Below, one piece after another: positions 11,444-44,474 of a stretch of 64,000 nucleotides of DNA. The first letter of the stretch is position 1. Every line of letters begins with the position of its first letter. Origin of the DNA: Candidatus Eiseniibacteriota bacterium (lineage in GTDB: Bacteria; Eisenbacteria; RBG-16-71-46; CAZAMP01). The stretch is taken from contig OZ245046.1 in assembly GCA_965224245.1 (NCBI GenBank), positions 1,696,001-1,760,000 of the forward strand, given 5' to 3'. Made by a program: the position numbers and the translations under genes. The notes below the pieces were generated by a model. That model did no database searches, was not told the DNA's origin, and saw nothing but the letters and a program-made list of their open reading frames with translations.

Positions 11444-11675
11444 CGTCCGCCACGTGAACGCTCTCAGGGTACGGCCGACGAAAAGCCGTCTGCAAGCGGG
11501 TCGGGATCGCCGACCTCACGCGTGGCGGTCGGGCCGGATGCGTGACCCCGGGGCGTGGCCCGCACTCGTTCCGAGCATCGATCCGGCACCGTCCCCTCTC
11601 GAACCTGGCTCGGAGCCGCCGCGAGGGTTACAGTCCGCGCGGATTCGAGAGTCCATTCACGTCACGGAGCGAGAG

Positions 11676-19800: not shown

Positions 19801-21071
19801 GTGGCGACTCTCGCTCGTCGTGCGTCGATCATCTGCAGGTAGCTCTCGACGCGGTTCTTGATGTTGGCCGCGGAGAAGTACCGCGGATCCACGAGATCCG
19901 ACTCGATGAACGCCCCCGGAACGCCGGCCCGCTTCTCGATCTCGCGCAGCATCAGGAGCTGTCCGGCGGAGAACGAGTTGCACGACTTCACGGAGTTGAT
20001 GACGAAGCCGTCGGCCTCGTACTCCTGGATGTAGCGCACGAGCATGTCGATCCGGCTCGGGAGGTTCAGGTTGGTGTAGCAGCCGCTGCAGTACTCCCCG
20101 AGCGTCCCCAGCGGATCGCCGGGATCGTGGCGGAACCCGAAGTCGTACGTCCCCCCCACCTTCGTGTAGGTGGACGCCACCACGACCGCCTGCTCCTGGG
20201 AGAAGATCCGCCAGAACTCCCGGAAGCTCGTCCAGTTGGGCGGTCCCTCCACGACGAGCCGGTACCGCTCCTCCTCCAGGGGGCCGTCGGGGGTGATCGG
20301 CCCCAGCCCGGCGGCTGCCCGGGCCTCCACTTCCTCGCGCAGCGCCGCGTAGTACTCGACGCCCTCGGGGGTGCCGCGAAACGCGCTGAAGATCGGCCCC
20401 ACGTAGTAGACCGCGCCGAAGTAGGCGTCGATCGGGCTGGGGCGCTTCCTGGCCGACTGGAGGACCGCCACCAGGTCGTCCTCGGAGCGCGCGCTCATCG
20501 CGAGGTACTCGCGCAGACGATCCTCGTCGTACGGGCGCCCCGTCACCTTCTCGAGCGCGGGGATGACCCGGTCGCGCAGCTGCTCGACCATGTAGGCGCG
20601 GTGCTCGGGGGTCTGCGTGCCGTCGCCCTGGTAGGGCACGTGCAGGAAGACCGTCGGACAGTCGTACTCCTCGCGCAGTAGCTCGAACCACTTCATGAAC
20701 GTGTAGCAGCCGGTGTACGACAGGAGCAGGAGATCGGGCTTCGGGAGCCGGCGGCCGGTGGGACCGATGTTGCCTGCCTTGGCCATGCCCACGTCGCACT
20801 TGACGTACGTGCAGACGTCCTCGGAGTGGCCGTCCTTCTCGGCCTCGGCGATGTAGTCCCGGCTCTTGCCCCGCATCCCGGACTGCAGGGCGTTGATCTC
20901 CGGCAGCACGGGCAGTGCGTCGAACGAGCGCACGAGCTCGGTGAGGTTGCCGGGAACGAACGTGTAGACGACCGGCTCGCCCGTCTCGGGGGCCGCCTCC
21001 AGGCGCTCGTAGTGGCGGGCGATCATCTCCTTCTGCAGGACCATCGAGCGGTCCTTCTGCACGTCGGTCAT
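19797..21071 (-). CDS. bcrB: Benzoyl-CoA reductase subunit B
   Basis: [44 protein letters not shown]. Confidence 0.95.
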
Positions 21072-22239
21072 CACTCCCCCCACAGCTTGATCGAGTCGGC
21101 GAACGTTCCCGCCTGCTCGCGGAACTGCTGGAACTGGCCGGAGTTCTCGGCGTACTTGAACGCGATGCACGGGATCTTCTCCGCCTCCGCCCCGGCGCGC
21201 AGCATCGGGCGATCCAGAAGCGCGGGATCGCAGAAGCTCGGCGCGGCGAAGATGATCCCGTCCGCCCCCGCCGCCTTCACCCGCTCGGCCATGAGCCGGC
21301 GCTTGCCCTCCGGGTCGTCCTCGTACACCACCGAGCTCTTCACCGCGTGCTCGAGGTACGCGGTGGCCAGCGCCTCGACGGGATCGCCGTCGGTGCCCAC
21401 ATCCCGCGTGAAGAAGCGATTGCCGATGAGGAAGTCGTCGCCGACGATGTAGCAGCCCGCGCGCTCGATGGTCTTGATGAGCCCCAGCGGCGGCTGCTCG
21501 CAGAACGCGCCCTCGACGAGGACGCGGCTCCGGTCCTTGAGCGGCTGCGGATCGGACTCGACCGCGGCCAGGTACGCACGCATGCGATCGATGAAGAGCT
21601 CCACCGGCACCACCTCGCCCGCCCGCATCAGCACGAAGAGCTCCGCGGTGGGGATCTTCCACGGCGACGTTCTGCGGACCCGGTACAGCTCGGCGATGGT
21701 GGCCCGGGCCGTGTCGTAGACGGCGATGGATCGGCGCAGGTCCTCGTCCGTGGCCGGCCGCCCGGAGATCTCGCCGAGGTCGCGCCGGAGGATCCGGAGC
21801 TCCTCCTGCCAGAACGTGCCCCCCGTGGCACGGTCCAGCACCTGCGGCAGATCCAGGTAGCGCACGTAGAGATCGGGGAACATGATCTGCCACATGCCCG
21901 AGAGGTTGCGGATCACGTCGCAGGTCGACGGAAAGAGCATCGCCGAGAGCATGCGAAGACGGCCCGACTGCGCCAGCTCCACGACCGATCGCGGCAGGTG
22001 GCAGATGTAGGACTGGTAGTATGCATCGCCGCGGATGATCTCGAGCCGGTCTCCGCCCCCGTGAATCCCCACCGGCAGCATGCCGCTGGCGTGGATGAGC
22101 TCCCGGGGCTGGTAGACCGGGAGGTAGCCCACGGCCTTCCGACCCGGGTGCTCCTCGAGCCACTGCACCACCGTCCCGAGATCGAGGTCCTCGTAGATCC
22201 CGGTCGCCCAGTCGACGATCTCGGTCCGCGTCGGTGCGC

Positions 22240-22243
<4 letters not shown>
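21071..22243 (-). CDS. bcrC: Benzoyl-CoA reductase subunit C
   Basis: [50 protein letters not shown]. Confidence 0.95.
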
Positions 22244-23523
<1,280 letters not shown>

Positions 23524-23533: not shown

Positions 23534-25501
<1,968 letters not shown>

Positions 25502-25517: not shown

Positions 25518-26603
25518 TCACGAGCCGCTCGCTCCGTCGGGAACGAGCACGACCCGCTTGGCCAGCTCGCCGCGGTGCGCGGCGTCGAAGGTGGAGTTGA
25601 TCTCGCTCAGCGAGCGTCGCTCGATGAACGGCTTGACGCGGAGACGCCCGTCTGCGATCCACCGGAGGAGCGTCGGATACAGGGTCGGGTCGCTTCCCCA
25701 GACCCCGAACGCGGACGCGTCGAACGCCATGAGGTTGCTGAGGCGCACCTCGAGCCGATCCATCGTGAAGCCCACGATGGCCAGCGTGGCCCCGAACCCG
25801 AGCAAGGAGAACGCCGCCTCCTGCCCGGCCCGGGTGCCGGACGTCTCGTAGATCTTCCAGCCCCAGCTCGGGGCCCCCAGCGCCTCGGCCTCGCTCGCCA
25901 CCCGCTTCCGGAGGTCGCGGCTCGAGAGCTCCCGGGCGTCGATCGCGGCGCGCGCGCCGTGCGCCGACGCGAGCTCGAGCCGTCCCGGGTCGACGTCGAT
26001 TGCCACGACCTTGGCGCCGGTGGCCGCGGCGATCTGGATTCCGTGGATTCCGATGCCGCCGGCGCCCACGAAGACGGCCAGCTCGTCGTCCCCCAGCTCC
26101 GAGCGCACGACCGCCTGGAACGGAGTGGCCATCGCGTCGGAGACCACCGAGAGCTCCCACAGCTCGTGCGTGGCCAGGAGCGCGTCGTCGACCTCACAGA
26201 GATAGCGCGCCGGCACGAGCACGTGGGAGGCATAGCCGCCGTGCCGGTCGTTGCCCGGCATCACCTGCTCGCGGCAGATCCGGAGGTGCCCCGAGCGACA
26301 GCGCTCGCAGCGACCGCAGGGCAGCACCGCGGGCACGACGACGGGCTTGTCGACGAGGCCGGGGTCGGTCTTCTCTCCGACCTCGACGACGGTGCCCGTG
26401 ATCTCGTGCCCCAGAGTCAGCGGGAGATCCGCGCGCGTCTTGACCCCCTGGTAGAGGAACGACACGTCGGTGTGGCAGACCCCACAGCCGGCCACCCGGA
26501 CCAGGGCTTCGCCGGGCGGGACGTCGGGCCACGGCAGCTCGCGCGAGACCATCGGCTCACCGGGAGCCGTCATCACCCACGCCTCGATCGTTCGATCCGT
26601 CAT
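25518..26603 (-). CDS. had: 6-hydroxycyclohex-1-ene-1-carbonyl-CoA dehydrogenase
   Basis: Zn-ADH GVCHTD, GHE, PAVLPCGRCERC, MPGND, RLSNLMAFD; bcr context. Confidence 0.9.
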   Translation of the reverse strand: MTDRTIEAWVMTAPGEPMVSRELPWPDVPPGEALVRVAGCGVCHTDVSFLYQGVKTRADLPLTLGHEITGTVVEVGEKTDPGLVDKPVVVPAVLPCGRCERCRSGHLRICREQVMPGNDRHGGYASHVLVPARYLCEVDDALLATHELWELSVVSDAMATPFQAVVRSELGDDELAVFVGAGGIGIHGIQIAAATGAKVVAIDVDPGRLELASAHGARAAIDARELSSRDLRKRVASEAEALGAPSWGWKIYETSGTRAGQEAAFSLLGFGATLAIVGFTMDRLEVRLSNLMAFDASAFGVWGSDPTLYPTLLRWIADGRLRVKPFIERRSLSEINSTFDAAHRGELAKRVVLVPDGASGS

Positions 26604-28477
26604 GTCTCCGTCCTTTGCTCCGTCCCCGCGGGCGGCGGCGAGGACGTCGGCCTCCCCGTCGCCTCGTGCGTGTCGTCGAACACGAGCGAGCCGCACTCGT
26701 GGCACCGGTCCAGCGTGACGTCCTTGCCGCGGAAGCACCTCCGATCGTCCGGACGCAGACGCATGACCTTTCTCAGGAAACAGCAATCGCACTCGCGCGA
26801 CGGGTCGTAGATCGCCTCGACGTACATCCGGCGGCTCTCGAGGACGTTCTGAACCCGTACCTTCATCGACGGCGTCAGCTCTCCGCTCTCCACAGTGGGC
26901 TCCCGGTCGACCACGGCGAACGCCTGCACGTGCTCGTAGCCGACCTCGTTCGAGTCGTTGAGCCGGGTCACCGCCTCGCGAAACGCCGCGCGCACGACGC
27001 GATCGGCTCTCGCGCGGTCGTCGCCGAACTCCCCCTCGATGAGGAGGTAGTTGGGGAAGATGAGCGCGGCCAGGAAGTCCCGCCCGCTTCCCACCACCAC
27101 CGCGTGCTGGATGTACTTGCACGATCCCACGAGTGCGTTCTCGAGCTTCGTGGGCACGACCTTCTCCGCGTTCAGCATCTTGAACACGCGGTCCTTCCGG
27201 CTGATCAGCCGGAGCCCGTGCTCGCCCAGCGCTCCGAGATCGCCGGTGTGAAACCATCCGTCGCGGAGCGCGGCCGCGGTCGCGTCGGGGTCCCGGTGGT
27301 AGCCGCGCATGACGTTGGGTCCCCGGACGAGGATCTCGCCGTCGCCGGCGATGCGGAGCGTGACCCCGGGGATCGGGCGACCGACCACGCCGGGGACCGC
27401 GCGCGCCTCCTCGGGATCGGTGACCGTGCAGCAGGGAGACGTCTCGGTGAGACCCCACCCCTCGATCACCGGCAGGCCCCGCCGGCCGAAGTACCGGGAG
27501 ATGGTCGCGGGCAGCGGCGCGGCCGCGGTGAAGACGAACCTCAGCCCCTCGTGGAACACCCGCTCCTCGTCCTCGGGATGGGTCTCCACGTGGCTCACGA
27601 GCTGCTGGAAGATCTTCGGAACGCTGAAGTAGACGGTGGGACGGACCTCGCGCCAGTTCGCCAGGAGCACCGGGAGGTCCTTGCCCCGGCTCTCGTCGAT
27701 GACGTAGCGCGCCCCGTTGTAGAGCGCGGTGTACTTCTCGAAGATCCCGCCGAAGCTGTGATGCCAGGGAAGGTACGACAGAAACACGTCGTCGGGCGTC
27801 ACGGACCAGAGCGCGGCCATCGCCCGCTGCTGCGAGAGGATGTTGTCGTGGCTGAGGAGCACGCCCTTCGGCTCGCCGGAGGTTCCGGACGTGTACATGA
27901 GGAGGCAGGGATCGTGTACGTCACCGGTCTCGCCGGCGCGGAAGAGCGCGTCGATCTCGTCGCGGTCCCGCCGGCGAGGCGCGCGGCGGGCGGCCTCGTA
28001 CGTGGAGAGCGCGCCCCGGTACCCCGGAGGCCGCGCCGTCTCCGGAGACCCGGAGTCGAACGCGAGCACGAGCCGGACCGTCTCCGGAAGCGCCATCTCG
28101 CACAGGCGCTCGGCGTCCGGCACGAGCACGGCGAGCGCGCCCGAGTGCTCGATCAGCGCCAGCGCCTGCGCGGGCGAGTAGCCGGCGAAGATGGGCGTGT
28201 ACACCGCGCCGATGCTCATCGTCGCGAGCTCGGCCACGAGCATCTCGGCGCGGTTCGGGCAGAAGACGACGACGCGATCTCGCGGTCCGACGCCGTGCGC
28301 GTGCAGATGGAACCCGAACGCGCGGACGTCCGCCCCCAGCTCGTTCCAGCGGATCCAGCGTCGCCGGCCGTCGCGCTTCTCACCGAGAAGCGGCCGATCC
28401 CCGAACCGCGCGAGGCTCCTTGCCAGGAACGCACCGATGGTCTCGGGCGCTCCGATGGGCTCGCGTGAGGACGTCAT
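26600..28477 (-). CDS. AMP-dependent acyl-CoA synthetase (long-chain type) with Cys-rich tail
   Basis: YTSGTSGEPKG, GWGLTET, FHTGDLG, ELTPSMK. Confidence 0.9.
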   Translation of the reverse strand: MTSSREPIGAPETIGAFLARSLARFGDRPLLGEKRDGRRRWIRWNELGADVRAFGFHLHAHGVGPRDRVVVFCPNRAEMLVAELATMSIGAVYTPIFAGYSPAQALALIEHSGALAVLVPDAERLCEMALPETVRLVLAFDSGSPETARPPGYRGALSTYEAARRAPRRRDRDEIDALFRAGETGDVHDPCLLMYTSGTSGEPKGVLLSHDNILSQQRAMAALWSVTPDDVFLSYLPWHHSFGGIFEKYTALYNGARYVIDESRGKDLPVLLANWREVRPTVYFSVPKIFQQLVSHVETHPEDEERVFHEGLRFVFTAAAPLPATISRYFGRRGLPVIEGWGLTETSPCCTVTDPEEARAVPGVVGRPIPGVTLRIAGDGEILVRGPNVMRGYHRDPDATAAALRDGWFHTGDLGALGEHGLRLISRKDRVFKMLNAEKVVPTKLENALVGSCKYIQHAVVVGSGRDFLAALIFPNYLLIEGEFGDDRARADRVVRAAFREAVTRLNDSNEVGYEHVQAFAVVDREPTVESGELTPSMKVRVQNVLESRRMYVEAIYDPSRECDCCFLRKVMRLRPDDRRCFRGKDVTLDRCHECGSLVFDDTHEATGRPTSSPPPAGTEQRTET

Positions 28478-28563
28478 CGTGGCCGGCCCCCCGTCACCCG
28501 GCGCCCCGTCCGGCGGTCCGGCTCGGCCTCCGAGATCGTCGCGTCGCGTGTGCACGTCGGGAC

Positions 28564-29364
28564 TCACGACGTCACCTCCGAGCGCACGCTCGCGATCGCG
28601 TCGCGCGCGGCCAGCGCGGCGCCGAACGCGCCCATCTCCTGGGGGTGCGGCGGCAAGAGCACCTCGGTCCCGAGCGCCTTCCCCATCAGCTCGACCACGG
28701 TGGGGTGATGCGCCACGACGCCGCCGGTGGCCACCACGCGCGAGTCGAGGACCTCCATCTCCAGCACCCGCGCCACGACCGACTTGTACGCCGCCCGGGC
28801 GAGATCGGCCGGCCACTGCCCGCGGCGGATGGCGGCGAGCAGCTCGGTGCCCGAGAACACCGTGCAGTAGCTGCCGAGCTCGATCTCCTCGCGGTACCCC
28901 GACGCGAACTCGTCCAGCTGCTCGATGGCGATGCCCAGACGCAGCGCCATCTCCTCGAGAAAGCTCCCGGTGCCGGCCGCGCACTTCCGGTTCATGCGGT
29001 GGGAGATCCGGCGTCCGGCCTCGTCGATCCGGATGATCTTCGCGTCCTGCCCGCCGATGTCGACGATGGTCGCCGCGCCGGACACGTAGTGCCTCACACC
29101 GCGGGCGTGGCAGTCGAGCTCGGTGCGGGTCCCACCGGCGGCGCTCACGTTGCCGCGGCCGAACCCGGTGGCCCACACGGCGCTCAGCGCCTCGCGGGCC
29201 ACGCCGGCCTTGGCGAGGGCGGAGTCGAGCGCACGCTCGGCGGCGCCCGAGAGGTCGGCCGCCGAGCGGACCACCGCGGTGCCGAGCACCGCGGCCGCCT
29301 CGTCGAGGACGAGCGCCTTGGTGTTCCACGACCCGCTGTCGATGCCCGCGTAGAGCCTCGCCAT
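28564..29364 (-). CDS. Acyl-CoA dehydratase activase (HgdC/BadF-BadG ATPase family)
   Basis: GIDSGS, ATGFGR, DIGGQDAK, MNRKCAAGTG, SYCTVF. Confidence 0.92.
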   Translation of the reverse strand: MARLYAGIDSGSWNTKALVLDEAAAVLGTAVVRSAADLSGAAERALDSALAKAGVAREALSAVWATGFGRGNVSAAGGTRTELDCHARGVRHYVSGAATIVDIGGQDAKIIRIDEAGRRISHRMNRKCAAGTGSFLEEMALRLGIAIEQLDEFASGYREEIELGSYCTVFSGTELLAAIRRGQWPADLARAAYKSVVARVLEMEVLDSRVVATGGVVAHHPTVVELMGKALGTEVLLPPHPQEMGAFGAALAARDAIASVRSEVTS

Positions 29365-29374
29365 CGCCGCCGTC

Positions 29375-30607
29375 CTATCCCGATCCGGCCGTCTGCTCGG
29401 CCAGCTGCTCGACGAACCCCTCGATGCTCGTGCGCGACTGCTCGGCCGAGTAGCACCGGAGGTCGTTCTGGTCGCCCTCGACGGTCAACACCGACACCCC
29501 CAGGCGCTCCTGCAGCCGGAGCGGCATGCCGTAGCGCGCGTTCGAGTTGTTGGGGCAGGTTCGACTGTCGTGGAAGACGACGCCGTCCGCGCCGAAGTCG
29601 CGGACCATCCGCTCGATGTAGCGTTCCTTGGGACCGTCGCAGCGCGCGATGAAGAGCTCCAGCGAGGCCCGGGCCATCGAGCGAAACGGGTCCGACGGGT
29701 CCAGCGTGTCGAAGATCCAGCTGTTGCAGTACGTGGAGGCCACGACGCACGTGGCGAGCTCGGCGAAGAACTCCGAGTGCTCGCGGAGCTTCCCCCACAT
29801 CGGCATGCCGTCCCAGTAGAGCCGGTACTGCTCGCCCTCGACCGCACCAACTCCGTCGCGAACGCGCGTCTCGAGCTCGGCCAGGAGCGTCTCGTAGTAG
29901 GAGCAGGCCTCGCGTCGCCCCCGGAGCACCACGGCGGGACCCATCTGCGTGGTGCCGTCGAAGAACGTGAAGGGGCTCGGCCGGTGGGTGGCCGTCTCCA
30001 GGCACGCCTTCCAGAGGCGCGTGCACTCCGCCGAGGCACGCATGGCCGTCTCGAGCGCTGGGCTCAGCCGGGTGCCCGCGATGGACTCCAGCGGACTCAC
30101 CAGGGACTCGATCTGCGTCGCCACCGCGTCGACGTGTCCCTCGGTGACGTCGTCGACCATCCGGATGGACGTCACACCGAGGACGGGAACCCCCCACTCT
30201 CGCCCGTAGAACTCGAACCAGTCGCGGACGTCCCGACACTGGTTGGTGTTGAACACCAGGACGTCGGCCCGCGGAACCGCCTCGAGGCCCTGGGCGGCGA
30301 ACGCGCTCTCGCCGCCGAGGTACGCCCCGATGTCGCTCGTCAGATACGAGCAGATCTCCTGCGAGTACCCCTTCGCGTGTGCGCGCGCCATGCAGCGATT
30401 GGCGATGCGCGAGGCCCCGAGCGCGGCCGCGTGGTTCTCCGGGAAGAACACCCGGAAGCCGAGCGCGTAGAGGAGCTCGGCGGGGCCGACGCTCGTACAC
30501 CACGCGACCGGCGCCGAGCCGTCGCGGGCCGCCGTCGCGAGCTCGCCGTAGTAGGCGTTCATCACCCGCCTGAGCTCGGTCGTGCTCTCGAGCGCCTTTC
30601 GCCGCAT
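29375..30607 (-). CDS. 2-hydroxyacyl-CoA dehydratase family subunit (HgdA/FldB-like)
   Basis: PENHAA, ICSY, NQC, RTC: three cluster Cys; VEGD near C-terminus. Confidence 0.9.
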   Translation of the reverse strand: MRRKALESTTELRRVMNAYYGELATAARDGSAPVAWCTSVGPAELLYALGFRVFFPENHAAALGASRIANRCMARAHAKGYSQEICSYLTSDIGAYLGGESAFAAQGLEAVPRADVLVFNTNQCRDVRDWFEFYGREWGVPVLGVTSIRMVDDVTEGHVDAVATQIESLVSPLESIAGTRLSPALETAMRASAECTRLWKACLETATHRPSPFTFFDGTTQMGPAVVLRGRREACSYYETLLAELETRVRDGVGAVEGEQYRLYWDGMPMWGKLREHSEFFAELATCVVASTYCNSWIFDTLDPSDPFRSMARASLELFIARCDGPKERYIERMVRDFGADGVVFHDSRTCPNNSNARYGMPLRLQERLGVSVLTVEGDQNDLRCYSAEQSRTSIEGFVEQLAEQTAGSG

Positions 30608-30617
30608 GCGTCTTCTC

Positions 30618-30697
30618 CCCGATCGCGGGTTCCATCCACGTCGGCCCGATCGCGGGTCCTACCCGCGTCGGCCCGATCGCGGGTTCGTTCGCGTCAG
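30618..30697. repeat. Intergenic tandem repeat, 3 x 27 bp
   Basis: CCCGATCGCGGGT core at 30618, 30645, 30672. Confidence 0.85.
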
Positions 30698-31512
30698 CCG
30701 ACGCCCGTGGACGCCGGGTCCGTCTTCAGCTCCAGTACCCTCAGGGCCGCTCCCAGCGCCCCGGTGATGATCGGCTCGGGCACCACCCGCGGCGACAGCC
30801 CCGTCAGCTCGCCGAGCGCCTTCATGACGCCCGGGAAGTACTCGGCCACGCCGCCCGAGATCACCAGGGGATCGCGGAAGCCGCCGATCTCGAACACGCG
30901 GGCCGCGATGGAGTGCACGCAGCCGAGCGCGATGTCCTCGCGGCTCGCTCCCTCGCGAAGCCGATCCAGCACCTCGGAGTTCGCGAAGACCGAGCAGTAG
31001 CTTCCGATCGCGGCCGGCTCGCGCGCGCTGGAGGCCAGCTCCTCGAGCCGCGTCGGGTGCACGTCGAGATGCCGCGCGGCGAACATCAGGAATGTCCCGA
31101 TGCCCAGTGCGCACTTGCGCACCGCACGGTTCGACACCGCGCGTCCTCGATCGTCGACCTCGATGACGGTGGGGTCGCGGCCGCCGATGTCGACCAGCGT
31201 CATCGGGTGTGAGAAGTGGTGAAAGGCGCCGCGGGCGTGGCAGTTCGACTCCCGGATGACGGTCGTCGCGCCGTCGACGCAGGAGGCCCCGAAGCCCGTG
31301 GCCGCGATCGACGACAGATCCCCGCGCCGGACTCCGGCCTCGTCGAGCGCGGCCGCCAGCGCCTCCTCCGCGCGGTCCTGAAAGTACCGGCGCGTGGGGA
31401 CGACGGCCCGCCCCACGAGCGCGTGGTCGTGGTCCATGACGATCGCCTTGACGCACTCGGTGCCGACATCGAGCCCCGCCACGAACATCGTGTCGCTCTT
31501 CATGGTCATCAC
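30694..31512 (-). CDS. Second, divergent acyl-CoA dehydratase activase
   Basis: GLDVGT, ATGFG, CHARG, DIGGRD, RKCALG, SYCSVF. Confidence 0.9.
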   Translation of the reverse strand: MMTMKSDTMFVAGLDVGTECVKAIVMDHDHALVGRAVVPTRRYFQDRAEEALAAALDEAGVRRGDLSSIAATGFGASCVDGATTVIRESNCHARGAFHHFSHPMTLVDIGGRDPTVIEVDDRGRAVSNRAVRKCALGIGTFLMFAARHLDVHPTRLEELASSAREPAAIGSYCSVFANSEVLDRLREGASREDIALGCVHSIAARVFEIGGFRDPLVISGGVAEYFPGVMKALGELTGLSPRVVPEPIITGALGAALRVLELKTDPASTGVG

Positions 31513-31525
31513 ATCCCCCGGCCGG

Positions 31526-33805
31526 CTAGCAGCCGGCTCCTACCGATGGGCTCGACGACGCCTCGGCGATCGACTCCTGTTGATCGATGAAGTCCGCGAG
31601 CCGGGTCTGGATCTGATCCATCGAGATCAGTCGAAGATCGTGCGTATCCCCCTCCACGACGATGGATGGAAGCCCCGTCGCACGACTGAGACGAACCTCG
31701 AGGCCGTAGCGCACGTTGCTCTGCTCGGGAGAGGTCCGTCCGTCGTGGTAGAGGGCGGCATCCACCGCGAAGTCGCGGAACTGCGACGCGAGGAAGCCGG
31801 CCTTGTAGTCGTCCGAACGGTTCGGGAAGATCCGGGTGTAGGCGTGGGCCATGCTCTCCAGGGGGTTCGCGCCGTCGAGACCCTCGAGCGCGAAGATCCC
31901 GGTGTACGTGGCCGCCACCACGGCCGTCCGGTGCTCGAGAAACAGCTCGGCCAGCGGACGGAGCGCGCACCAGATGGGTGGACCTTCCCAGTAGAGCCGG
32001 AAGCGCTCGCCGGGAACCGCGGCCTGCTGATCGGCGACCCGCTGCTCGATCTCGGCCTTCAGGATCGTGTAGTACGCCACCGCCTCGGGCGTGCCTCGCA
32101 TCAGAACGATCGGCGCCATGTGGATGAGCAGATCGAAGAACGTCAGCGGCGCGGGCACGGTCCGGGCGAGCTCCAGGATCTCGCCCCACAGACGCGCCGC
32201 CTGGGCCGAGTAGTCCACGATCCGGGACAGCGCGGTCGTGTCGAGGCGCGTGCCCACGATCTCCTCCAGCCGCGCGGTGACGTGCTTGATCTGCTGCACG
32301 GACGCGTCGATCTCGAGCGAGCTCACCTCGCGAAGCGCGGCCGGCGGATGGAGTCCCAGCACCGGAACGGAGAAGCGCGTGCCGTAGTACTCGAACCAGC
32401 GGGCGAGACTGCGGCCGTTGTTCGTGTTGTAGACCACCAGATCGGGATCCGGCGGTCCCGCGATGCCGTAGACCGAGACGAGCGGGCTGTCGCCCACCAG
32501 CATCGCGCCGATGTCGCTCGTCATCGCCGAGCTGGCGAACTGGGAGAAGCCCTCCGCGAGCGCACGCGGGATGTACCGTCCCGCCTGCCGGCTGGCGCCG
32601 ATCAGGGCGGCGTGGTTCTCGGGGAAGTACGGCGTGATCCCGAGCGCCCGCAGGATCTCGACCGGCCCCATCCCCGAGCACCAGGCCACCGGACGATCCG
32701 GATCCTCGGCGGCGGCCTGGACGTCCCGGTAGTAGTCACGCAGGAGCTCCTTCAGCTGGTGCGCGGTCCGGAGCGGCACCCGCCCCTCCACCATCCCGCC
32801 CTCGCGGCTCATCCGCGTGGGCTTCACCGTGACGCGCTCGGTGGTCGACTGGAGGGTGTTCGAGATCTCGCGGCGCCGAAGCTCCTTGAGCCGCTCGCGG
32901 GATCGGATGAAGTGGACCAGCGCCCGGTTGTGCGGCGTGCTGAGACCGTGACGCTCGCCCTCCTCCACGATCGCGCCGTTGATGGCCTCCACCTCGGTGC
33001 GATTGCCCCGCGCGAGGTCCTGCCACATCGAGGGCCGGTTCTTTCCCAGCGCGGTCAGCGATCCGGTCACCGGCCGGAACGGATCCTCCTCGTCCACGAT
33101 CGGGATCCCCCTGGCCTTCATGACGGCGACGATCTCGTTCGTGAGGTCCCGCATGAAGTCCATGAGGTCGGGGTCGTCGAGGAGCTCGCGACACGTGAGC
33201 CCGGTGAGCGCGGACGTCGGGTTCACCACCGCGTTGTGGAGGAGCTTCTGCCAGATCGAGTTGTCGATGTTGTCGACGACCTCGGTGGCGAGGTCGGCTT
33301 TTCGGAACACCTCGGCGATCGTCTGCATCTGCGAGGTCGGGCGGCCCTGGTAGGGCGCGATCTGGATCGGCTTGATGCCGACGCGGTAGCGGAGGCGGTT
33401 CGGCCCGACGTGCTGCACGCTGTGGTAGGTGATCCCGCAGAGCACGCGCTCGGGGCCGACCGCGTCGGCGATCGTGCGCGTGTTCCCGATCCCGTTCTGG
33501 AGACTCAGGACGAGCGTGGACGGCGTCAAGACCGGACTCGTTTCCTCGATGGCGTCCCCGGTCTGGTAGCTCTTGACGGCCAGGAACACGAGGTCCGCGG
33601 GTCCGACGTCGCACGCGCTGTCGAGGACGTGGATGCGGACCTTTCGCTCGGTCCGCCCCGCCTCGGAGATGTACATGCCGTCGTCGTCGAGGAGTCGCGC
33701 GCGCGCGCGATTGCGCTCGATGAAGATCACGTCCTCGCCCGCCTCGGTGAGCTGGGCGCCGATCAGTCCGCCCAGCGCGCCGGCCCCGACGACCACGATT
33801 CTCAT
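31526..33805 (-). CDS. Fusion: ketopantoate reductase (PanE/ApbA)-like domain + 2-hydroxyacyl-CoA dehydratase-like subunit
   Basis: GAGALGG, SLQNG, WQKLLHNAVVNP, SMWQD..RTEVEAING; then PVAWC..PENHAA..VEGD in one open frame. Confidence 0.9.
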   Translation of the reverse strand: MRIVVVGAGALGGLIGAQLTEAGEDVIFIERNRARARLLDDDGMYISEAGRTERKVRIHVLDSACDVGPADLVFLAVKSYQTGDAIEETSPVLTPSTLVLSLQNGIGNTRTIADAVGPERVLCGITYHSVQHVGPNRLRYRVGIKPIQIAPYQGRPTSQMQTIAEVFRKADLATEVVDNIDNSIWQKLLHNAVVNPTSALTGLTCRELLDDPDLMDFMRDLTNEIVAVMKARGIPIVDEEDPFRPVTGSLTALGKNRPSMWQDLARGNRTEVEAINGAIVEEGERHGLSTPHNRALVHFIRSRERLKELRRREISNTLQSTTERVTVKPTRMSREGGMVEGRVPLRTAHQLKELLRDYYRDVQAAAEDPDRPVAWCSGMGPVEILRALGITPYFPENHAALIGASRQAGRYIPRALAEGFSQFASSAMTSDIGAMLVGDSPLVSVYGIAGPPDPDLVVYNTNNGRSLARWFEYYGTRFSVPVLGLHPPAALREVSSLEIDASVQQIKHVTARLEEIVGTRLDTTALSRIVDYSAQAARLWGEILELARTVPAPLTFFDLLIHMAPIVLMRGTPEAVAYYTILKAEIEQRVADQQAAVPGERFRLYWEGPPIWCALRPLAELFLEHRTAVVAATYTGIFALEGLDGANPLESMAHAYTRIFPNRSDDYKAGFLASQFRDFAVDAALYHDGRTSPEQSNVRYGLEVRLSRATGLPSIVVEGDTHDLRLISMDQIQTRLADFIDQQESIAEASSSPSVGAGC

Positions 33806-33847: not shown

Positions 33848-34621
33848 CTACCGGTTCTTCCAGATCGGCTTGCGCTTCTCGGTGAAGGCCGCGAGTCCCT
33901 CCTGCACGTCCTCGGTGATCATCAGCTCTTCCAGAAAGCGGCGCTCCGCGCGTGTGAGCAGCTCGGCGAACGGTCGCGCCTCGGCCAGCCGGAGTGCTCG
34001 CATGTTCATGCGCATGACCAACGGGCTCGCCCGGCGGAAGTCGTCGAGCGTCGCCTCGAGCGCCCCGTCGAGCTCTCCCTGCGGCACCACCCGGGCGACC
34101 AGACCGAGCTCGCGCATGGCCGCGGCGTCGTAGATCCGTCCGGAGGCCGTGATCTCGGCCGCGCGCGCCGGTCCCACGAGCGCCGGAAGCCGGACGACCG
34201 CGACCGGCGCGAAGAACCCCAGCCGGATCTCCGGCTGACCGAACGTCGCGCGCTCGCTGGCCAGGAGCACGTCCGCCATCATGACCAGCTCGAAGCCGGC
34301 ACCCAGCGCCGCGCCGTCCACGGCCATGACGACGGGGACGTCCAGCGCGTCGAGTCGGCGGAACAGCTCCCCGAACGCCCCGATCATCGGGCGGACCTCC
34401 GACGGCGCGTGCTCACCGACGTCGGCCCCCGCGCTGAAGGCCTTGCCGTTCGCGGTGATGGCCACGGCCTTGAGCGAGTCGTCGTGCGCGACGCGGTCCA
34501 GCGCCGCCGTGAGCTCCCTCATCATCGCGGTGGTGAGGATGTTGAGGGGCGGCGCATCCAGCGTGACGTAGGCCACCCCGTCGCGCGTCGTGACCCGAAC
34601 GGTTGCGGTCTCGGTGCTCAT
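33848..34621 (-). CDS. dch: Enoyl-CoA hydratase, probable cyclohexa-1,5-diene-1-carbonyl-CoA hydratase
   Basis: APPLNIL, FSAGADVGEH, GQPEIRLG, EGLAAFTEKRKP; bcr/had/oah context. Confidence 0.75.
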   Translation of the reverse strand: MSTETATVRVTTRDGVAYVTLDAPPLNILTTAMMRELTAALDRVAHDDSLKAVAITANGKAFSAGADVGEHAPSEVRPMIGAFGELFRRLDALDVPVVMAVDGAALGAGFELVMMADVLLASERATFGQPEIRLGFFAPVAVVRLPALVGPARAAEITASGRIYDAAAMRELGLVARVVPQGELDGALEATLDDFRRASPLVMRMNMRALRLAEARPFAELLTRAERRFLEELMITEDVQEGLAAFTEKRKPIWKNR

Positions 34622-35088
34622 GTCTTCACCTTCGGCGGCTCGGTGTCCGGCGTCCGGACCCACGTCGTGCCCGGTCGCTCCAGGCTGTAGTAGACGTGGA
34701 TCTCCTCCATCTCCTCGTACATGCGGGGAACGGCCTGGAGCGGCATCCCGATCTCCAGCGCGTCGGGCGGCGCGCTCTCCCCGAGCGGGGCGAGGAGCCG
34801 TCCTCCGTCCTCGAGGTCGAGCACCCCGACCCAGTAGACCCCGAGGTCCTCGAAGCCCGCGGGGGCGGCGTCGATCCTCGTGTACGTGACCAGCGTTCCC
34901 CGGCCCGAGACCTCGACGTACTCGAACTCGCTCCCGAGACAGCTCGCGCAGTCGGCGCGCGGCGGGAACGTCCGGGCGCCGCACTCGGCACAGCGTGACC
35001 CCATGATCCGGCCGTTCCGCAGGTGTCGCGCGAAGTCGGCGATCTTCGTGTGAGGACAGAAGCTGACCCTTCCGAACCACTCGAACAT
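34618..35088 (-). CDS. Zn-ribbon/OB-fold (DUF35) thiolase partner
   Basis: CAECG..PPRADCASC; adjacent to thiolase. Confidence 0.9.
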   Translation of the reverse strand: MFEWFGRVSFCPHTKIADFARHLRNGRIMGSRCAECGARTFPPRADCASCLGSEFEYVEVSGRGTLVTYTRIDAAPAGFEDLGVYWVGVLDLEDGGRLLAPLGESAPPDALEIGMPLQAVPRMYEEMEEIHVYYSLERPGTTWVRTPDTEPPKVKT

Positions 35089-35091: not shown

Positions 35092-36246
35092 TCACTCCCT
35101 CCGGAACACGTGGACGAAGCAGTACTGACCGATGCCCCCCACGTTGTGCGTGAGTCCGACGTCGGCGTCGGCCACCTGCCGCTCGCCGCACTCGCCCCTG
35201 AGCTGGTGGACGATCTCGGCGGCCATGGACACGCCGGTGGCCCCGATCGGATGTCCCTTCGCCTTCAGTCCGCCGTCCACGTTGACCGGCGTCTTGCCCC
35301 CGACGTACGAGAGCTTCTCCTGGACGAACGCTCCTCCCTGCCCCTTCTCGCAGAAGCCGAGGTCCTCGTAGGCCATGATCTCGGCGATGGTGAAGCAGTC
35401 GTGCACGTCGGCGACCTTCACCCCGTCGGCCTCGATGCCGGCCATCGCGTACGCCTGGCGCGCGGCCTCCCGCGCGGCCGGGAGCCCGGTGAGATCCGGT
35501 CGGCGCAGGACGGACATGCTGGCGCTCGCGCACCCGAGGCCGTCCAGCCACACGACATCGTCGCGCATCGCACGCGCCCGCTCCTCGGAGGCCAGGACGA
35601 GACAGGCGGCGCCGTCGGCGTTCGCGCAGCAGTCGTACACCCGGAGCGGAGAGGCCACGGGGTCCGAGAGGCGCGCCTTCTCGCGCGTGATCTCCTTCTG
35701 GAACATCGCGCACGGATTGCGCGCGCCGTAGTAGTGGTTCTTGATCGCGACGTCTTCCAGCTGCTCGACGCTGGTGCCGTACTCGTGCATGTGGCGATGC
35801 GCGAACATCGCGTAGTAGCCGGGGAAGGTCGTGCCGAACACCGACTCCCACTGTACGTCGCCGACCCGGCCCATGAGGGCGAGCACCTCGGCGGTGCCGA
35901 GCTCGGTCATCTTCTGGCAGCCGACCACGAGGATCACGTCGTGCAGGCCGGAGCCGATGGCCATCCACGCGGTCCGCAGCGCCGCGGAGCCCGACGCGCA
36001 GGCCACCTCGGTGAGCCAGGTCGGCTTCGGGTTGAGGTTCAGGTACTCCTGGATCACGCCCGCCAGCGAGCGCTGCTTGTGGTACTCGGGGACCGAGCCG
36101 ATCACCGAGGCGTCGATGTCCTCGGCCGCGAGCCCGGCGTCCCGGAGGGCCTCTCGGTACGCCTCGAAGGCCAGCTCCTGGACGTTCGCGTCGCTGCGAC
36201 GCCCGAAGGGCGTGTGCCCGACGCCCACCACGCCGACCCGCCTCAT
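35092..36246 (-). CDS. SCP-x-type thiolase
   Basis: EVACASG, HDCFT, GGLKAKGHPIGATG, HNVGG. Confidence 0.92.
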   Translation of the reverse strand: MRRVGVVGVGHTPFGRRSDANVQELAFEAYREALRDAGLAAEDIDASVIGSVPEYHKQRSLAGVIQEYLNLNPKPTWLTEVACASGSAALRTAWMAIGSGLHDVILVVGCQKMTELGTAEVLALMGRVGDVQWESVFGTTFPGYYAMFAHRHMHEYGTSVEQLEDVAIKNHYYGARNPCAMFQKEITREKARLSDPVASPLRVYDCCANADGAACLVLASEERARAMRDDVVWLDGLGCASASMSVLRRPDLTGLPAAREAARQAYAMAGIEADGVKVADVHDCFTIAEIMAYEDLGFCEKGQGGAFVQEKLSYVGGKTPVNVDGGLKAKGHPIGATGVSMAAEIVHQLRGECGERQVADADVGLTHNVGGIGQYCFVHVFRRE

Positions 36247-36277
36247 CGGTCCGGTCTCCTCGATCGCGTCGCGTCCC

Positions 36278-37027
36278 TCACATGTACTGCCCTCCATCGA
36301 CCCGGATCACCGACCCGGTGACGTGCCGCGCGCGCTCGGTGCAGAGAAAGACGACCACGTTGGCCACGTCCTCGGGCTCGGCGAGCCGCCCGAGGACCGT
36401 CTCCTTCATCGACGCGTTCCGGAACTCCGCGGGGATCGCCCGGGCCATCTCGGTCATCACGAGGCCCGGCGCCACGGCGTTGACGTTCACGTTGAACTTC
36501 CCCAGCTCGCGCGCCAGGGCCTTGGTGAGCGCGATGTTCCCGGCCTTCGAGGCGGCGTAGTTGCTCTGGGCGTGCTTGCCGCGAAGCCCGTTGATCGAGG
36601 ACACGTTGACGATCTTCCCGTGTCGCTGGTCCTTGAAGATCCCGGCCGCCGCGCGGTTGTAGTTGAAGTAGCCCTTGAGATTGACGTCGAGAACGCGGTC
36701 CCACTGCGCCTCGGACATCTTCCACACGACCGCGTCGGCGGTGATCCCCGCGTTGCAGACCAGGATGTCGAGGCGTCCCAGCTCCTCTCGCGCCCGCTCG
36801 ACGATGGTCTCGGCGTCGGAGAAGTCGGCCACGTCGGCGGCGTACACCACGCATCGTACGTCCTCGCGCTCGATCGTCTCCCGGAGCCGCTCGGTCTCCT
36901 CCGTGGGCTTCCGGCACACGATCGCCACGTGACACCCCAGTCGTGCCAGCCCGAGGGAGATCGCGGCCCCGATCCCCCGGTTGCCGCCGGTGACGACGGC
37001 GACTTGCCGGTCGAGCTCTCGCTTCAC
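36278..37027 (-). CDS. SDR family oxidoreductase (FabG-like)
   Basis: TGGNRGIG, CNAG, YAASK. Confidence 0.93.
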   Translation of the reverse strand: MKRELDRQVAVVTGGNRGIGAAISLGLARLGCHVAIVCRKPTEETERLRETIEREDVRCVVYAADVADFSDAETIVERAREELGRLDILVCNAGITADAVVWKMSEAQWDRVLDVNLKGYFNYNRAAAGIFKDQRHGKIVNVSSINGLRGKHAQSNYAASKAGNIALTKALARELGKFNVNVNAVAPGLVMTEMARAIPAEFRNASMKETVLGRLAEPEDVANVVVFLCTERARHVTGSVIRVDGGQYM

Positions 37028-37031: not shown

Positions 37032-37994
37032 TCAGCTTCCCTTCAGCTCGGCTCCGCAGCGCCCGCAGTGCTGGAACTGCTCGGGGATCCCCTTCGCGCC
37101 GCAGGCGGGGCAGACGTGGCTCGGCGGACCCCACACGAACTCGCTGCTCCCACCGCTGGCCGCCAGGTCCCGGAGATGGCGGTAGCCGGCCTTTCGCTTC
37201 TCGACGAAGGCCGTCATCCCCTCGTAGGGCTCGGCCGACGTGAAGTGCAGGCTCAGCCAGTCGCGCGCGTGACCGATCGTCGCGTGCCACGCGGTCTCCT
37301 TCCAGTAGTTGAGCTGCTGCTTGGTGTACCGCGTGCACTCGGGGAACTTGTCGATGCAGTGCTGTGCGATCTCTTCGACGGTGTCGTCGAGCTTCTCCCG
37401 GGGCACGACGCGGTTCACGAGACCCCACTCGAGCGCCTGCTTCGCCGGGATTCGCGGGTTCAGAAACAGGATCTCCCGGGCTCGCCGGTCGCCCACGTGA
37501 ATCGAGAGCCACTGCGTCGCGCCGCCGCAGGCCACGCTGCCCACGCTGGTTCCGACCTGCGCGATGTACGTGTCGTCGGCCATCACGGCCAGGTCGCAGG
37601 CCAGCTGCGACTCGTTGCCCCCGCCCACGGCCATGCCGTTCAGCCGGGCGATCGTGACCTTTCCGCTCTTCAGGATGCTCTCGATGTAGCTGGAGAACAG
37701 ACCCATGTACTTCCAGTAGTGACGCGGTCGCTGCGTGTAGATCCCGGCGTACTCCTTGACGTCTCCTCCCGTGCAGAACGCCTTCTCCCCGGCGCCGGTG
37801 TAGACGATGACGCCCACCGCGTCGTCCTCCGACGCGTCCGTGAACGCGGCGATGAGCTCGCGGAGGGTGTCGGTGGTATAGGCGTTGTAGGCCTCCGGAC
37901 GGTTGATGGTGATGCGCGCCACCATGTCCTTCTTCTCGTAGAGGATGTCCTTGAAGGCCATCTCCGCCGCCGGTACCGAGGGGAAGTAGTCCAT
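37032..37994 (-). CDS. oah: 6-oxocyclohex-1-ene-1-carbonyl-CoA hydrolase-like crotonase
   Basis: YNAYTT, AFCTGGDVKEYA, GSVACGGAT; C-terminal CPACG..CGRCG zinc ribbon. Confidence 0.75.
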   Translation of the reverse strand: MDYFPSVPAAEMAFKDILYEKKDMVARITINRPEAYNAYTTDTLRELIAAFTDASEDDAVGVIVYTGAGEKAFCTGGDVKEYAGIYTQRPRHYWKYMGLFSSYIESILKSGKVTIARLNGMAVGGGNESQLACDLAVMADDTYIAQVGTSVGSVACGGATQWLSIHVGDRRAREILFLNPRIPAKQALEWGLVNRVVPREKLDDTVEEIAQHCIDKFPECTRYTKQQLNYWKETAWHATIGHARDWLSLHFTSAEPYEGMTAFVEKRKAGYRHLRDLAASGGSSEFVWGPPSHVCPACGAKGIPEQFQHCGRCGAELKGS

Positions 37995-38662
37995 CACGTC
38001 ATCTCCTTGCGCCCGGCCGGACCGGCCGCTCCGTGGGCTGTGCCGCCCGTGAGACCCGGCAGCACCAGATCGATCATCTCGTGGCCGAGCTCCGCGACCG
38101 GTCCGTCGCGCTCGGGCTCGAACCACGTGAAAATCCAGTTCAACATGCCGAACATGAACAGCGTGTAGTGGCGAACGAGCCGCTCGCGGTGCGGCTCGGT
38201 CATCCCGGCGGGCAGCAGGTCGCGGACGACTCCGGCCAGGATCTTGAAGTACTCGGCCCGGAGTCGCCGGACGCTCTCGTAGAACTCGCCCTCGAGGGAC
38301 TCCAGCTCGAAGGCGCAGACCTTCATCTCGTTGGTCTTCTCGGTGTAGAAGTGGAGGTGGTTCTCCACGAGCCGCTGGAGCTTCTCTCGCGGAGCGGCGT
38401 CCTCGTCGGAGATGGCCTGCTGTCGCTCCAGGAGGACCGAGAACGTGCGGTGCTGGATCTGGAAGAGCAGGTCGTCCTTGCTCTTGAAGTAGTAGTACAT
38501 GCCCGAGAGGCTGAAGCGGGTGACGCGGGCCACGTCGCGGATCGTGGTCTGGTCGTAGCCCTGCCGGGCCATGAGCTCCGAGGCGGCGTCGAGCAGACGC
38601 TCGCGCTTCGTCGGTGAGCCCACGCCGGGCTCAGTCGTCACCTGGGATCGCTCCGGGTCCAA
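37994..38662 (-). CDS. TetR family transcriptional regulator
   Basis: GYDQTTIRDVA..MYYYFKSKDDLL; FGMLNWIFTWF. Confidence 0.93.
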   Translation of the reverse strand: MDPERSQVTTEPGVGSPTKRERLLDAASELMARQGYDQTTIRDVARVTRFSLSGMYYYFKSKDDLLFQIQHRTFSVLLERQQAISDEDAAPREKLQRLVENHLHFYTEKTNEMKVCAFELESLEGEFYESVRRLRAEYFKILAGVVRDLLPAGMTEPHRERLVRHYTLFMFGMLNWIFTWFEPERDGPVAELGHEMIDLVLPGLTGGTAHGAAGPAGRKEMT

Positions 38663-44119: not shown

Positions 44120-44474
44120 TCGACGGTCGACGGGGCGGTCCGGCCGCCCTCTGAGGAACACGGCCCGGCGAGGGTCCTCTCCCTCGCTCGGGCCGTTCGT
44201 GTTTCGACTCGGTTGACGTCGGGTCCGGATGCCCGATGCGGGCCGTCCATCGAGGTCGTCGCCGGGACGATGGCGAAAGCCGTGACCGCGAGCCCCCCAC
44301 CTAGCCCCCGAAGAGATCGTGATCCGCGTCGGTAGCCGACGCCGACAAAACGGGCATCTCCATGGTGCATCGACATCAATGTGCTGGACCCGGAACCCGA
44401 TGGCATCGGATGCCCCGAGCTGTCAGAATCCACGTTCGTCACCGGCCGGACCCTCTCGAACCCTGGAGGACCCC

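Follow-up and report, generated by a model that had tools for sequence, protein, structure and literature searches.

A conserved five-gene module with a PanE-dehydratase-type fusion in the benzoyl-CoA operon of a Candidatus Eiseniibacteriota bacterium: a candidate aryl-lactyl-CoA route

We have analysed a window of 64,000 nucleotides from a Candidatus Eiseniibacteriota bacterium (GenBank assembly GCA_965224245.1, contig OZ245046.1, positions 1,696,001 to 1,760,000). It carries a module of five genes on the minus strand, 33805-26600, inside a 21-gene operon that also encodes an Hcr-like enzyme, had and bcrCBAD. The module encodes a PanE-type reductase fused to an HGD-D protein (PanE::D1), a second HGD-D protein (D2), two activase-type ATPases (A1 and A2) and an acyl-CoA ligase (LIG). 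The conserved quartet of 2-oxoacid reductase, CoA activator, HadB-like subunit and ATPase corresponds, by analogy, to the gene logic of 2-hydroxyacid dehydration routes. Considering the evidence below, we think that the module probably serves a 2-hydroxyacyl-CoA dehydratase route, whatever the substrate. A route from an aryl-pyruvate through aryl-lactyl-CoA to a cinnamoyl-type enoyl-CoA, in which we infer all catalytic steps and the substrate, has an even chance in our estimate. The gene content, domains, cysteine loss, paralogy, synteny and co-occurrence on which these readings draw are established observations.

The five-gene module and its proteins

Because the window has a G+C content of 70%, genes were called by third-position G+C frame analysis and then named with Pfam and NCBIfam. 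The preliminary description of this DNA had placed five co-oriented genes here, and all five were recovered with these methods:

31526-33805, minus strand: PanE::D1 fusion, 759 amino acids; Pfam ApbA 124.9, ApbA_C 125.1 and HGD-D 166.3 bits
30694-31512, minus strand: A1, BcrAD_BadFG activase-type ATPase, 272 amino acids; Pfam 121.2 bits, TIGR00241 158 against 125
29375-30607, minus strand: D2, alpha-type HGD-D protein (PF06050), 410 amino acids; Pfam 197.3 bits
28564-29364, minus strand: A2, BcrAD_BadFG activase-type ATPase, 266 amino acids; Pfam 132.9 bits, TIGR00241 189 against 125
26600-28477, minus strand: LIG, AMP-forming acyl-CoA ligase, 625 amino acids; AMP-binding 256.3 bits, with an AMP-binding_C_3 domain

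The arrangement is not a chance grouping, as A1 lies immediately 3' of the fusion in 72 of the 72 loci with room to test it.

Residues 1-305 of the fusion form a ketopantoate-reductase-family NAD(P)H-dependent 2-oxoacid reductase, and residues ~336-759 form the alpha-type HGD-D protein D1. The PanE domain scores 252 on TIGR00745 (cut-off 141.35) and contains both PF02558 and PF08546, and it stays below the cut-off of every 2-dehydropantoate reductase equivalog model (best 199.8 against 252). The motifs QNG, WxKL..N...N and S..QD..G..E are common to this domain and the solved ketopantoate reductases in alignments with Protein Data Bank (PDB) entries, and 47 family members showed no variation at N104, K187, N191, N195, S259, D263 and E271. 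By comparison with the E. coli ketopantoate reductase, we take these motifs to contain the catalytic Asn, Lys and Glu. A D-mandelate dehydrogenase (3wfi) was also among the PDB matches of the domain, with 87 bits. The PanE assignment of the preliminary description is thereby upheld, with the reductase motifs retained and TIGR00745 exceeded, and the domain looks like an active reductase.

The D1 part showed a different state. Its best PDB match is HadB (124 bits), and it has Ser, Gly and Ser at the three positions of the HadB cysteine ligands. In the D1 family, cysteine was found in 0 of 81 members at 425/426, in 0 of 81 at 464 and in 7 of 81 at 692; among the rows of a wider alignment that lie outside the D1/D2 clade, the first and third ligand cysteines were found in 82 of 82 and the second in 81 of 82. 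D1 is, judged by these residues, without iron-sulfur cluster ligands throughout its family. It scored 171 on the HadB equivalog model NF052455 (cut-off 750) and 27.2 on the double-cubane cluster protein (DCCP) model NF040772 (cut-off 350). Even so, D1 is strongly constrained, with a mean column identity of 71% over 47 sequences, and the full-length fusion matches among the phylum's genomes contain no internal stops. As a separate observation, two D2-like matches with 40-41% identity to the D1 domain (G034:C4:86013-87212 and G041:C97:11463-12638) each contain one in-frame TAG or TGA.

D1 and D2 share 43% identity over 401 residues with two gaps, and D2 and the BcrB of the same genome share 26%. 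Both proteins match HadB/BcrB models and not HadC/BcrC models (E<=1e-5), and the genome's own BcrC does match HadC. Accordingly, the two HGD-D proteins are assigned from their sequences to the alpha (HadB/BcrB) type as close paralogues. The PDB matches of D2 are HadB with 177 bits, MbdO with 81 and BzdO with 75, so that D2 is closer to a dehydratase subunit than to ring-reductase subunits. Cys86, Cys124 and Cys351 of D2 correspond to the HadB ligands in the alignment, and 51 of 51 family members have all three; D2 also retains Trp36, Glu57 and Tyr88, which line the active site in BzdO and HadB. D2 is thus the presumed catalytic subunit with a full three-cysteine [4Fe-4S] site. It scored 126.6 on the BcrB model TIGR02260 (cut-off 486.55) and 76.2 on the BzdO model TIGR03191 (cut-off 448.6). 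Two extra invariant cysteines, Cys37 and Cys294, had suggested a double-cubane protein. We rejected this candidate, as D2 reaches 46.5 on NF040772 against 350 and retains Trp36, which occupies the site of the second sub-cluster in BzdO, and Cys37 is present in MbdO too.

No gene for a beta subunit of the HadC/BcrC/HgdB type was found in the module by Pfam and NCBIfam profile scans. Since D1 is without ligand cysteines and the module is without a beta subunit, this is not a heterodimer of the FldBC/HadBC type, with which the preliminary description compared it. Instead, D1 probably pairs with D2. The D1-D2 heterodimer was modelled as a pseudo-symmetric dimer with an interface score (ipSAE) of 0.79, compared with 0.00 for the best of three controls; a score of 0.79 was attained by 58 of 80 solved complexes and by 2 of 110 mismatched pairs. 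Contacts agreed by at least 94% between runs, and the partners had a pLDDT of at least 91. Because HadBC and BzdNO structures have been solved, the pass may reflect likeness to them and is not proof.

The two ATPase genes are paralogous, their products sharing 40% identity. The PDB matches of A1 are MbdQ (127 bits), HgdC (122) and HadI (121.5), and those of A2 are HadI (162), MbdQ (141) and HgdC (129). Both cysteines of the dimer-bridging cluster are kept in 76 of 76 family members of A1 and in 46 of 46 of A2, and both ATPases look able to carry a cluster. The phosphate-2 motif of A1 reads DIGGRD instead of DIGGQD, with R for Q in 71 of 76 family members; the motifs of A2 are canonical and invariant in 46 of 46. 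Known dehydratases have a single activator gene, and the module has two, as a class I benzoyl-CoA reductase has two different ATPase subunits; a single ATPase is found in the simple relatives described below.

LIG is of the long-chain/FadD11-like type and attained no equivalog cut-off in Pfam and NCBIfam. A CoA-activating enzyme stands directly after D2(-A2) in 40 of 42 testable loci, so that CoA activation is closely tied to D2. The enzyme is of three unrelated kinds: LIG orthologues in 17 loci, other AMP-forming ligases in 16, ADP-forming acyl-CoA synthetases in 6, and both in 1. A sodium:solute symporter also accompanies it in 8 loci. Such replacement by non-orthologous enzymes speaks for activation of a free acid as a part of the module's function. 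In loci where D2-A2 is separated from the fusion (L006, L015, L016, L017, L022, L025, L031, L062 and others), the genes next to it encode an ADP-forming acyl-CoA synthetase of 702 amino acids and a sodium:solute symporter. It is unlikely that LIG is the benzoate-CoA ligase of this genome, as a canonical one (494 against 375) is encoded elsewhere in it. A profile search of the genome found no canonical phenylacetate-CoA ligase (best 75, cut-off 646).

Relatives, distribution and operon context

The fusion was found in at least 120 metagenomic protein clusters with 60-68% identity, and as at least 113 confirmed matches in a one-genome-per-species set. For locus analysis, 80 of the 113 were kept; all are from uncultured organisms, and 79 are titled as metagenome-assembled genomes (MAGs). 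The hosts are Acidobacteriota, Gemmatimonadota, Krumholzibacteriota and allies, and Myxococcota. Among the fusion homologues listed, no informative name was met, only 'dehydropantoate reductase' or 'hypothetical'; ten members of the D1/D2 clade and the Atlas entries have generic names only, and none of the 10 representatives scanned was over an equivalog cut-off. D2-A2 comes next after A1 in many loci and elsewhere lies on the opposite strand or on another contig, and a D2-like gene is present in 15 of the 15 other module genomes checked.

The module is strongly linked to genes of the benzoyl-CoA pathway. Of the 36 loci that extend 8 kb or more on each side, 29 have had, Hcr-like or bcr genes in the flanks of the fusion. 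The remaining 7 are of an Anaeromyxobacteraceae type, and in one genome of this type canonical had, oah and dch genes that exceed their cut-offs were found 25 kb away, together with bcrCBAD. In the phylum of the window, the fusion occurs in 6 of 206 genomes, and a had gene over the cut-off is found in 6 of these 6 compared with 52 of the other 200. The preliminary description would have given up its reading had the module occurred mostly without aromatic-degradation genes; the loci and the phylum genomes showed the opposite. Ten unassigned neighbour families were compared with Pfam: they include a thiolase, an ACD-type synthetase, a symporter and a hemerythrin, and six had no Pfam match. Apart from the module, many genomes in two families of the phylum (f17 and f18) carry a BcrB-like gene that reaches only ~205-225 bits against a cut-off of 487 and lies within a few kb of a had gene over its cut-off (for example, G184:C143:7117-13279 and G089:C15:44838-52556); by their scores these may be a divergent class I reductase type.

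The relationship between the HGD-D proteins was examined in two trees. FastTree was applied to 104 rows (100 full-length representatives among 150 listed, and four proteins of the window's genome) and a quick IQ-TREE run to 44 rows (40 representatives and the same four); the irregular rows P0137, P0150, P0153, P0164 and P0217 and 55 others were left out of the latter for speed. D1 and D2 fall into one clade, with an SH-aLRT of 100 and 17 of the 44 rows in IQ-TREE and with 22 of the 104 rows in FastTree, and in both trees this clade lies apart from the BcrB clade. Other members of the clade retain the cluster cysteines. One of them, P0122 from a Myxococcota MAG, is a PanE::HGD-D fusion with all three cluster cysteines and 48% identity to D2, possibly an intermediate form.

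A simpler variant was found in 7 metagenome loci (L108, L115, L120, L132, L146, L151 and L154; e.g. L120:6249-10995) on contigs with 39% and 62% G+C. Its order is bcrCBAD, ligase, one three-cysteine alpha subunit, a separate PanE, one ATPase, thiolase, had, an oah-like and a dch-like gene, and its ligases are 41-47% identical to LIG. The gap-free gene maps of L120 and L151 contain no beta gene. In the 17 testable metagenome relatives, an ATPase lies within 6 kb in 17 and a ligase in 15, and one alpha subunit with one ATPase was found in 14. Compared with these relatives, the module of the window looks like a duplicated version of a simple system in which one alpha copy has lost its cluster and gained a reductase.

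We considered whether the module could be the benzoyl-CoA reductase of the organism and rejected this. Besides the module, 13 of the 15 other module genomes have further HGD-D pairs, and the two without them (G051, 97% complete, and G008) have one AOR-family gene each; the genome of the window has no AOR-family gene. The AOR-family gene of G051 heads a cluster of ferredoxin-, HdrD-, HdrA-, MvhD-, NuoE- and NuoF-like genes, a bamBCDEFGH-like set with the composition of a class II reductase. Therefore, the module is not the ring reductase of these genomes. The earlier view that the window has a complete bcrCBAD, and that the module is a second and distinct system of the BCR/HAD family, was borne out by the profiles, the identities and the trees.

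The operon is a co-directional minus-strand cluster of 21 genes (42412 to 17217) with intergenic gaps or overlaps of at most 86 bases. Around the five module genes, which stand between ECH257 and had, its members are, in order:

41540-42412, minus strand: FAD subunit of CO-dehydrogenase type, from its PDB match to CutM
38631-41516, minus strand: fused 2Fe-2S and HcrA-like molybdenum subunit, 961 amino acids; TIGR03194 910 against 995
37994-38662, minus strand: TetR regulator, from profile scans
37032-37994, minus strand: ECHmenB, MenB/BadI/Oah-like crotonase, the best oah-like gene of the genome
36278-37027, minus strand: FabG-like short-chain dehydrogenase/reductase (SDR), from Pfam/NCBIfam
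35092-36297, minus strand: SCP2-type thiolase, from Pfam/NCBIfam
34618-35088, minus strand: DUF35/OB-fold protein, partner of this thiolase, from Pfam/NCBIfam
33848-34621, minus strand: ECH257, crotonase, non-canonical candidate dienoyl-CoA hydratase (dch); TIGR03189 147 against 292.5
25518-26603, minus strand: had, 6-hydroxycyclohex-1-ene-1-carbonyl-CoA dehydrogenase; TIGR03201 442, cut-off 339
23534-25501, minus strand: 3-hydroxyacyl-CoA dehydrogenase/enoyl-CoA hydratase fusion, from profile scans
22240-23523, minus strand: thiolase, from profile scans
21071-22243, minus strand: bcrC; NCBIfam 501, cut-off 421
19797-21071, minus strand: bcrB; NCBIfam 689, cut-off 487
18532-19800, minus strand: bcrA; NCBIfam 560, narrowly below the cut-off of 578
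17681-18535, minus strand: bcrD; NCBIfam 368, cut-off 313
17217-17705, minus strand: GNAT acetyltransferase, last gene of the operon after bcrD, from profile scans

Thus had and three of the four bcr genes exceed NCBI equivalog cut-offs, and the complete bcrCBAD is ~5 kb from the module. A GNAT homologue 3' of bcrD also occurs in several Gemmatimonadota loci (L030, L037 and L051). Outside the operon, the window encodes large repeat proteins (LVIVD, FG-GAP, arylsulfotransferase-like) with a C-terminal FlgD-Ig-like domain at 13010-15436, 44319-46133 and 46179-49805, a multihaem cytochrome c at 43133-44119, and two Ser/Thr kinases at 9053-11515 and 49902-52598.

The genome of the window contains no canonical dch or oah over the cut-offs; the best candidates, ECH257 and ECHmenB, are both in the operon. 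The label 'dch' given earlier to the gene upstream of the module therefore stands in part: the gene is below the TIGR03189 cut-off, yet it is the best dch-like gene of a 97%-complete genome. Because orthologues of ECH257 are also the best dch-like gene in 5 of 5 other module genomes (G051, G008, G026, G071 and G085), we regard it as a non-canonical candidate dch. ECHmenB orthologues are the best oah-like gene in three relatives without a canonical oah, and the two relatives with a canonical oah have no ECHmenB in the operon. ECHmenB is thus present in the operon of 4 genomes without canonical oah, the window's included, and absent from 2 with it, which suggests, from gene content, a non-orthologous replacement of the ring-opening hydrolase.

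The preliminary description had proposed beta-oxidation of cinnamoyl-CoA, to which the genes of the operon do not specifically point. As canonical dch and oah are absent, the hydratase, the SDR, the thiolase and ECHmenB are fully explicable by the lower pathway of benzoyl-CoA. Its further claim that the module explains the presence of Hcr in the operon is weak, considering that the FAD subunit is of CO-dehydrogenase type and not HcrB, and that the Hcr-like enzyme is missing in the simple variant. The molybdenum fusion does match 1rm6_A with 557 bits, but the FAD subunit matches CutM of CO dehydrogenase with 181 bits and HcrB with 88, over residues 4-122 only. The part of HcrB beyond this match, which is said to contain its extra iron-sulfur loop, has no counterpart in the subunit.

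Proposed chemistry and competing explanations

In the chemistry that we propose, the PanE domain would use NAD(P)H to convert a free 2-oxo acid into the (R)-2-hydroxy acid, and the ligase would form its CoA thioester. D2, with a single [4Fe-4S] cluster, would then dehydrate the 2-hydroxyacyl-CoA via a ketyl radical to the enoyl-CoA, after the A1/A2 pair has started it by injecting one ATP-energised electron. D1, a duplicated alpha subunit without cluster, would have a structural role, completing a pseudo-symmetric dimer with D2 and tethering the reductase. As D1 is without ligands, there would be one cluster per D1/D2 pair, and one cluster fits a recycled one-electron, redox-neutral catalysis better than a two-electron ring reduction; a ring reductase employs an [8Fe-9S] store for two-electron reduction, according to PMC11971306. 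In the DCCP:DCCP-R complex described in PMC9351452, the ATPase cluster is positioned on the dimer axis, where it can be reached from either subunit. The ATPase cluster may likewise reduce D2 directly, and because of this geometry no relay cluster would be required in the partner. The asymmetric D1/D2 pair could also explain the asymmetric A1/A2 pair.

The substrates would be phenylpyruvate or phenyllactate and their 4-hydroxy forms, giving cinnamoyl- or 4-coumaroyl-CoA; shortening of these by beta-oxidation would yield benzoyl- or 4-hydroxybenzoyl-CoA. We consider aryl substrates the likeliest because the module always accompanies benzoyl-CoA pathway genes, and also because the genome is without a canonical phenylacetate-CoA ligase.

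Several points weigh against this route. Two different ATPase subunits are a hallmark of ring reductases, and the top PDB match of A1 is the ring-reductase protein MbdQ, by a margin of 5 bits. D2 scores 197 on the HadB equivalog NF052455 (cut-off 750), and neither D2 nor LIG attains any equivalog cut-off; the trees contain no characterised FldB, HgdA or LcdA sequence. PanE is within 6 kb in only 10 of the 17 testable metagenome relatives, and in the simple variant the ligase that follows bcrD may instead be of benzoate type. No conserved aminotransferase was found near the module, where each unassigned open reading frame family occurs in at most 13 of 80 loci and none of the ten families compared with Pfam is an aminotransferase. 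Since the lower pathway accounts for the neighbouring genes, they give no specific support for beta-oxidation of cinnamoyl-CoA. Finally, in known dehydratases the activator is a single homodimer, the beta subunit carries a cluster of its own, the reductase is of D-lactate-dehydrogenase type and activation is by a CoA transferase; the module has none of these four features.

A reductase-type function as a whole seems unlikely to us, and so does its specific form, an ATP-driven reductase or reductive dehydroxylase of a substituted aryl-CoA or alicyclic CoA ester, in which the ligase would activate an imported acid and D2 with A1/A2 would reduce the ester before the Bcr/Bam, dch and had steps. 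The two distinct ATPase genes, comparable to BcrAD, BzdPQ and MbdPQ, speak for it, and so does the position of the module: in most loci it is flanked by the candidate dch and had, and in the simple variant it comes immediately after bcrD. Trp36, Glu57 and Tyr88 are common to D2 and BzdO, where they surround the benzoyl ring and thioester according to PMC11971306, and the related DCCP proteins are ATP-dependent reductases according to PMC9351452. However, the module has no six-cysteine subunit of the BcrC/BzdN type and D1 is without a cluster, and D2 is far below the cut-offs of BcrB (127 against 487) and BzdO (76 against 449) and outside the BcrB clade. Such a function would also leave a conserved and apparently active NAD(P)H-dependent 2-oxoacid reductase without a role, in genomes that own a class I pair already or, in the one exception checked, a ring-reductase cluster like that of class II.

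The same dehydration could act on a non-aromatic substrate that joins the lower pathway of benzoyl-CoA, for example from 2-oxoglutarate through (R)-2-hydroxyglutaryl-CoA to glutaconyl-CoA, or on a hydroxylated pimelyl- or glutaryl-CoA after ring opening of hydroxybenzoyl-CoA. All gene-content arguments for a dehydratase hold equally for such substrates, and the ligases are of fatty-acid or acetate type rather than of aromatic-acid type. In addition, the neighbours are lower-pathway genes (candidate dch, had, candidate oah and thiolases) with no aminotransferase alongside, and the simple variant is without the Hcr-like enzyme. Nevertheless, we rate this reading as rather unlikely: a glutaconyl-CoA decarboxylase or comparable partner is missing from the operon, it is not obvious why an aliphatic route should be linked with bcr and had in several phyla, and a ring-derived intermediate would need no free-acid reductase, ligase or symporter.

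We think it improbable that the module is a one-cluster, ATP-primed radical enzyme acting on a ring compound that feeds the benzoyl-CoA pathway, and not an open-chain dehydratase. It might, for instance, catalyse alpha-elimination on an alicyclic CoA ester with an alpha-hydroxy group (quinoyl-CoA would be one), or remove a substituent from the ring of an aryl-CoA reductively. If true, this would be a new reaction type of the BCR/HAD family and a new entry to anaerobic aromatic metabolism in Acidobacteriota, Gemmatimonadota and Myxococcota. Quite improbable, finally, are two separate systems, a D2 homodimer with A2 and a PanE::D1-A1 pair with another role or in decay as a duplicate: D2-A2(-ligase-symporter) can indeed sit apart from PanE::D1-A1 on the other strand or contig, and one alpha subunit with one ATPase suffices in 14 of 17 relatives, but all 15 other module genomes have a D2-like gene, D1 is strongly constrained and free of stops in full-length fusions, 76 of 76 A1 family members have both cluster cysteines though D1 has no cluster to accept an electron, and the D1-D2 model passes its controls.

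Returning to the dehydratase route on an aryl-pyruvate, the overall interpretation of the preliminary description survives in part. The second system, the PanE reductase, the D2 subunit, the ligase and the aromatic link remain. The FldBC-type dimer does not hold, the beta-oxidation genes lend no specific support, the explanation of Hcr is weak, and the aryl substrate is proposed from context only.

Comparison with known systems

To our knowledge, the phenylacetate/phenylglyoxylate route is the only one established for the anaerobic degradation of phenylalanine and tyrosine by ring-reducing bacteria. In our literature searches, neither a PanE-HGD-D fusion nor this module turned up in any paper; searches for benzoyl-CoA with the names of the host phyla gave nothing relevant among the matches listed, and one for a 3-methylbenzoyl-CoA reductase structure gave no result. 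A passage of PMC13416013 mentions a route from phenylpyruvate through cinnamoyl-CoA to benzoyl-CoA in a sulfate reducer as speculation only. Accordingly, the module is a concrete and widespread candidate for an aryl-lactyl-CoA route in abundant uncultured phyla of soil and sediment. If the proposal is true, the BCR/HAD family would include an enzyme that operates with a single cluster and a heterodimeric ATPase, and in which a dehydrogenase is fused to a pseudo-subunit without cluster, and this one-cluster architecture would bear on how electrons are delivered to the active site in the family.

From its sequences, the module appears to be built unlike the known 2-hydroxyacyl-CoA dehydratases. 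The closest in proposed chemistry is the phenyllactate dehydratase system of Clostridium sporogenes (FldH, FldA, FldBC and FldI), reportedly described by Dickert et al. in 2002. The two would share the sequence from aryl-pyruvate through (R)-aryl-lactate and aryl-lactyl-CoA to cinnamoyl-CoA, and an iron-sulfur enzyme of the HGD-D family primed by an ATP-dependent, electron-donating ATPase. Compared by description, Fld has a separate reductase of D-lactate-dehydrogenase type, a CoA transferase, an alpha/beta dehydratase and one activator gene. In the module, the reductase belongs to the PanE family and is joined to an alpha copy without cluster, a CoA ligase stands in place of the transferase, a beta subunit is missing and there are two ATPases. 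The context differs as well, being respiratory or ring-reducing degradation and not Stickland fermentation.

Among solved structures, HadBC/HadI of Clostridioides difficile (3o3m and 4eht) is the best relative of D2 (177 bits), D1 (124) and A2 (162). HadB and D2 are alike in the three-cysteine site and in the Trp, Glu and Tyr residues. On the other hand, HadC has its own [4Fe-5S] cluster where the module has a cysteine-less partner of alpha type, and one HadI stands against two ATPases. The class I reductases BcrCBAD, BzdNOPQ and MbdONQP (8s02, 9g87 and 9gai) belong to the same families, have two ATPase subunits and are likewise found in benzoyl-CoA operons; they differ in the [8Fe-9S] subunit of BcrC/BzdN type, which the module lacks, and in that D2 falls into a clade separate from BcrB. 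For an HGD-D protein without a partner, the DCCP:DCCP-R system is, according to PMC9351452, a precedent, and the simple relatives of the module likewise have one HGD-D gene and one ATPase gene. DCCP differs in its six-cysteine double cubanes; the Trp that takes the place of the second sub-cluster is retained in D2.

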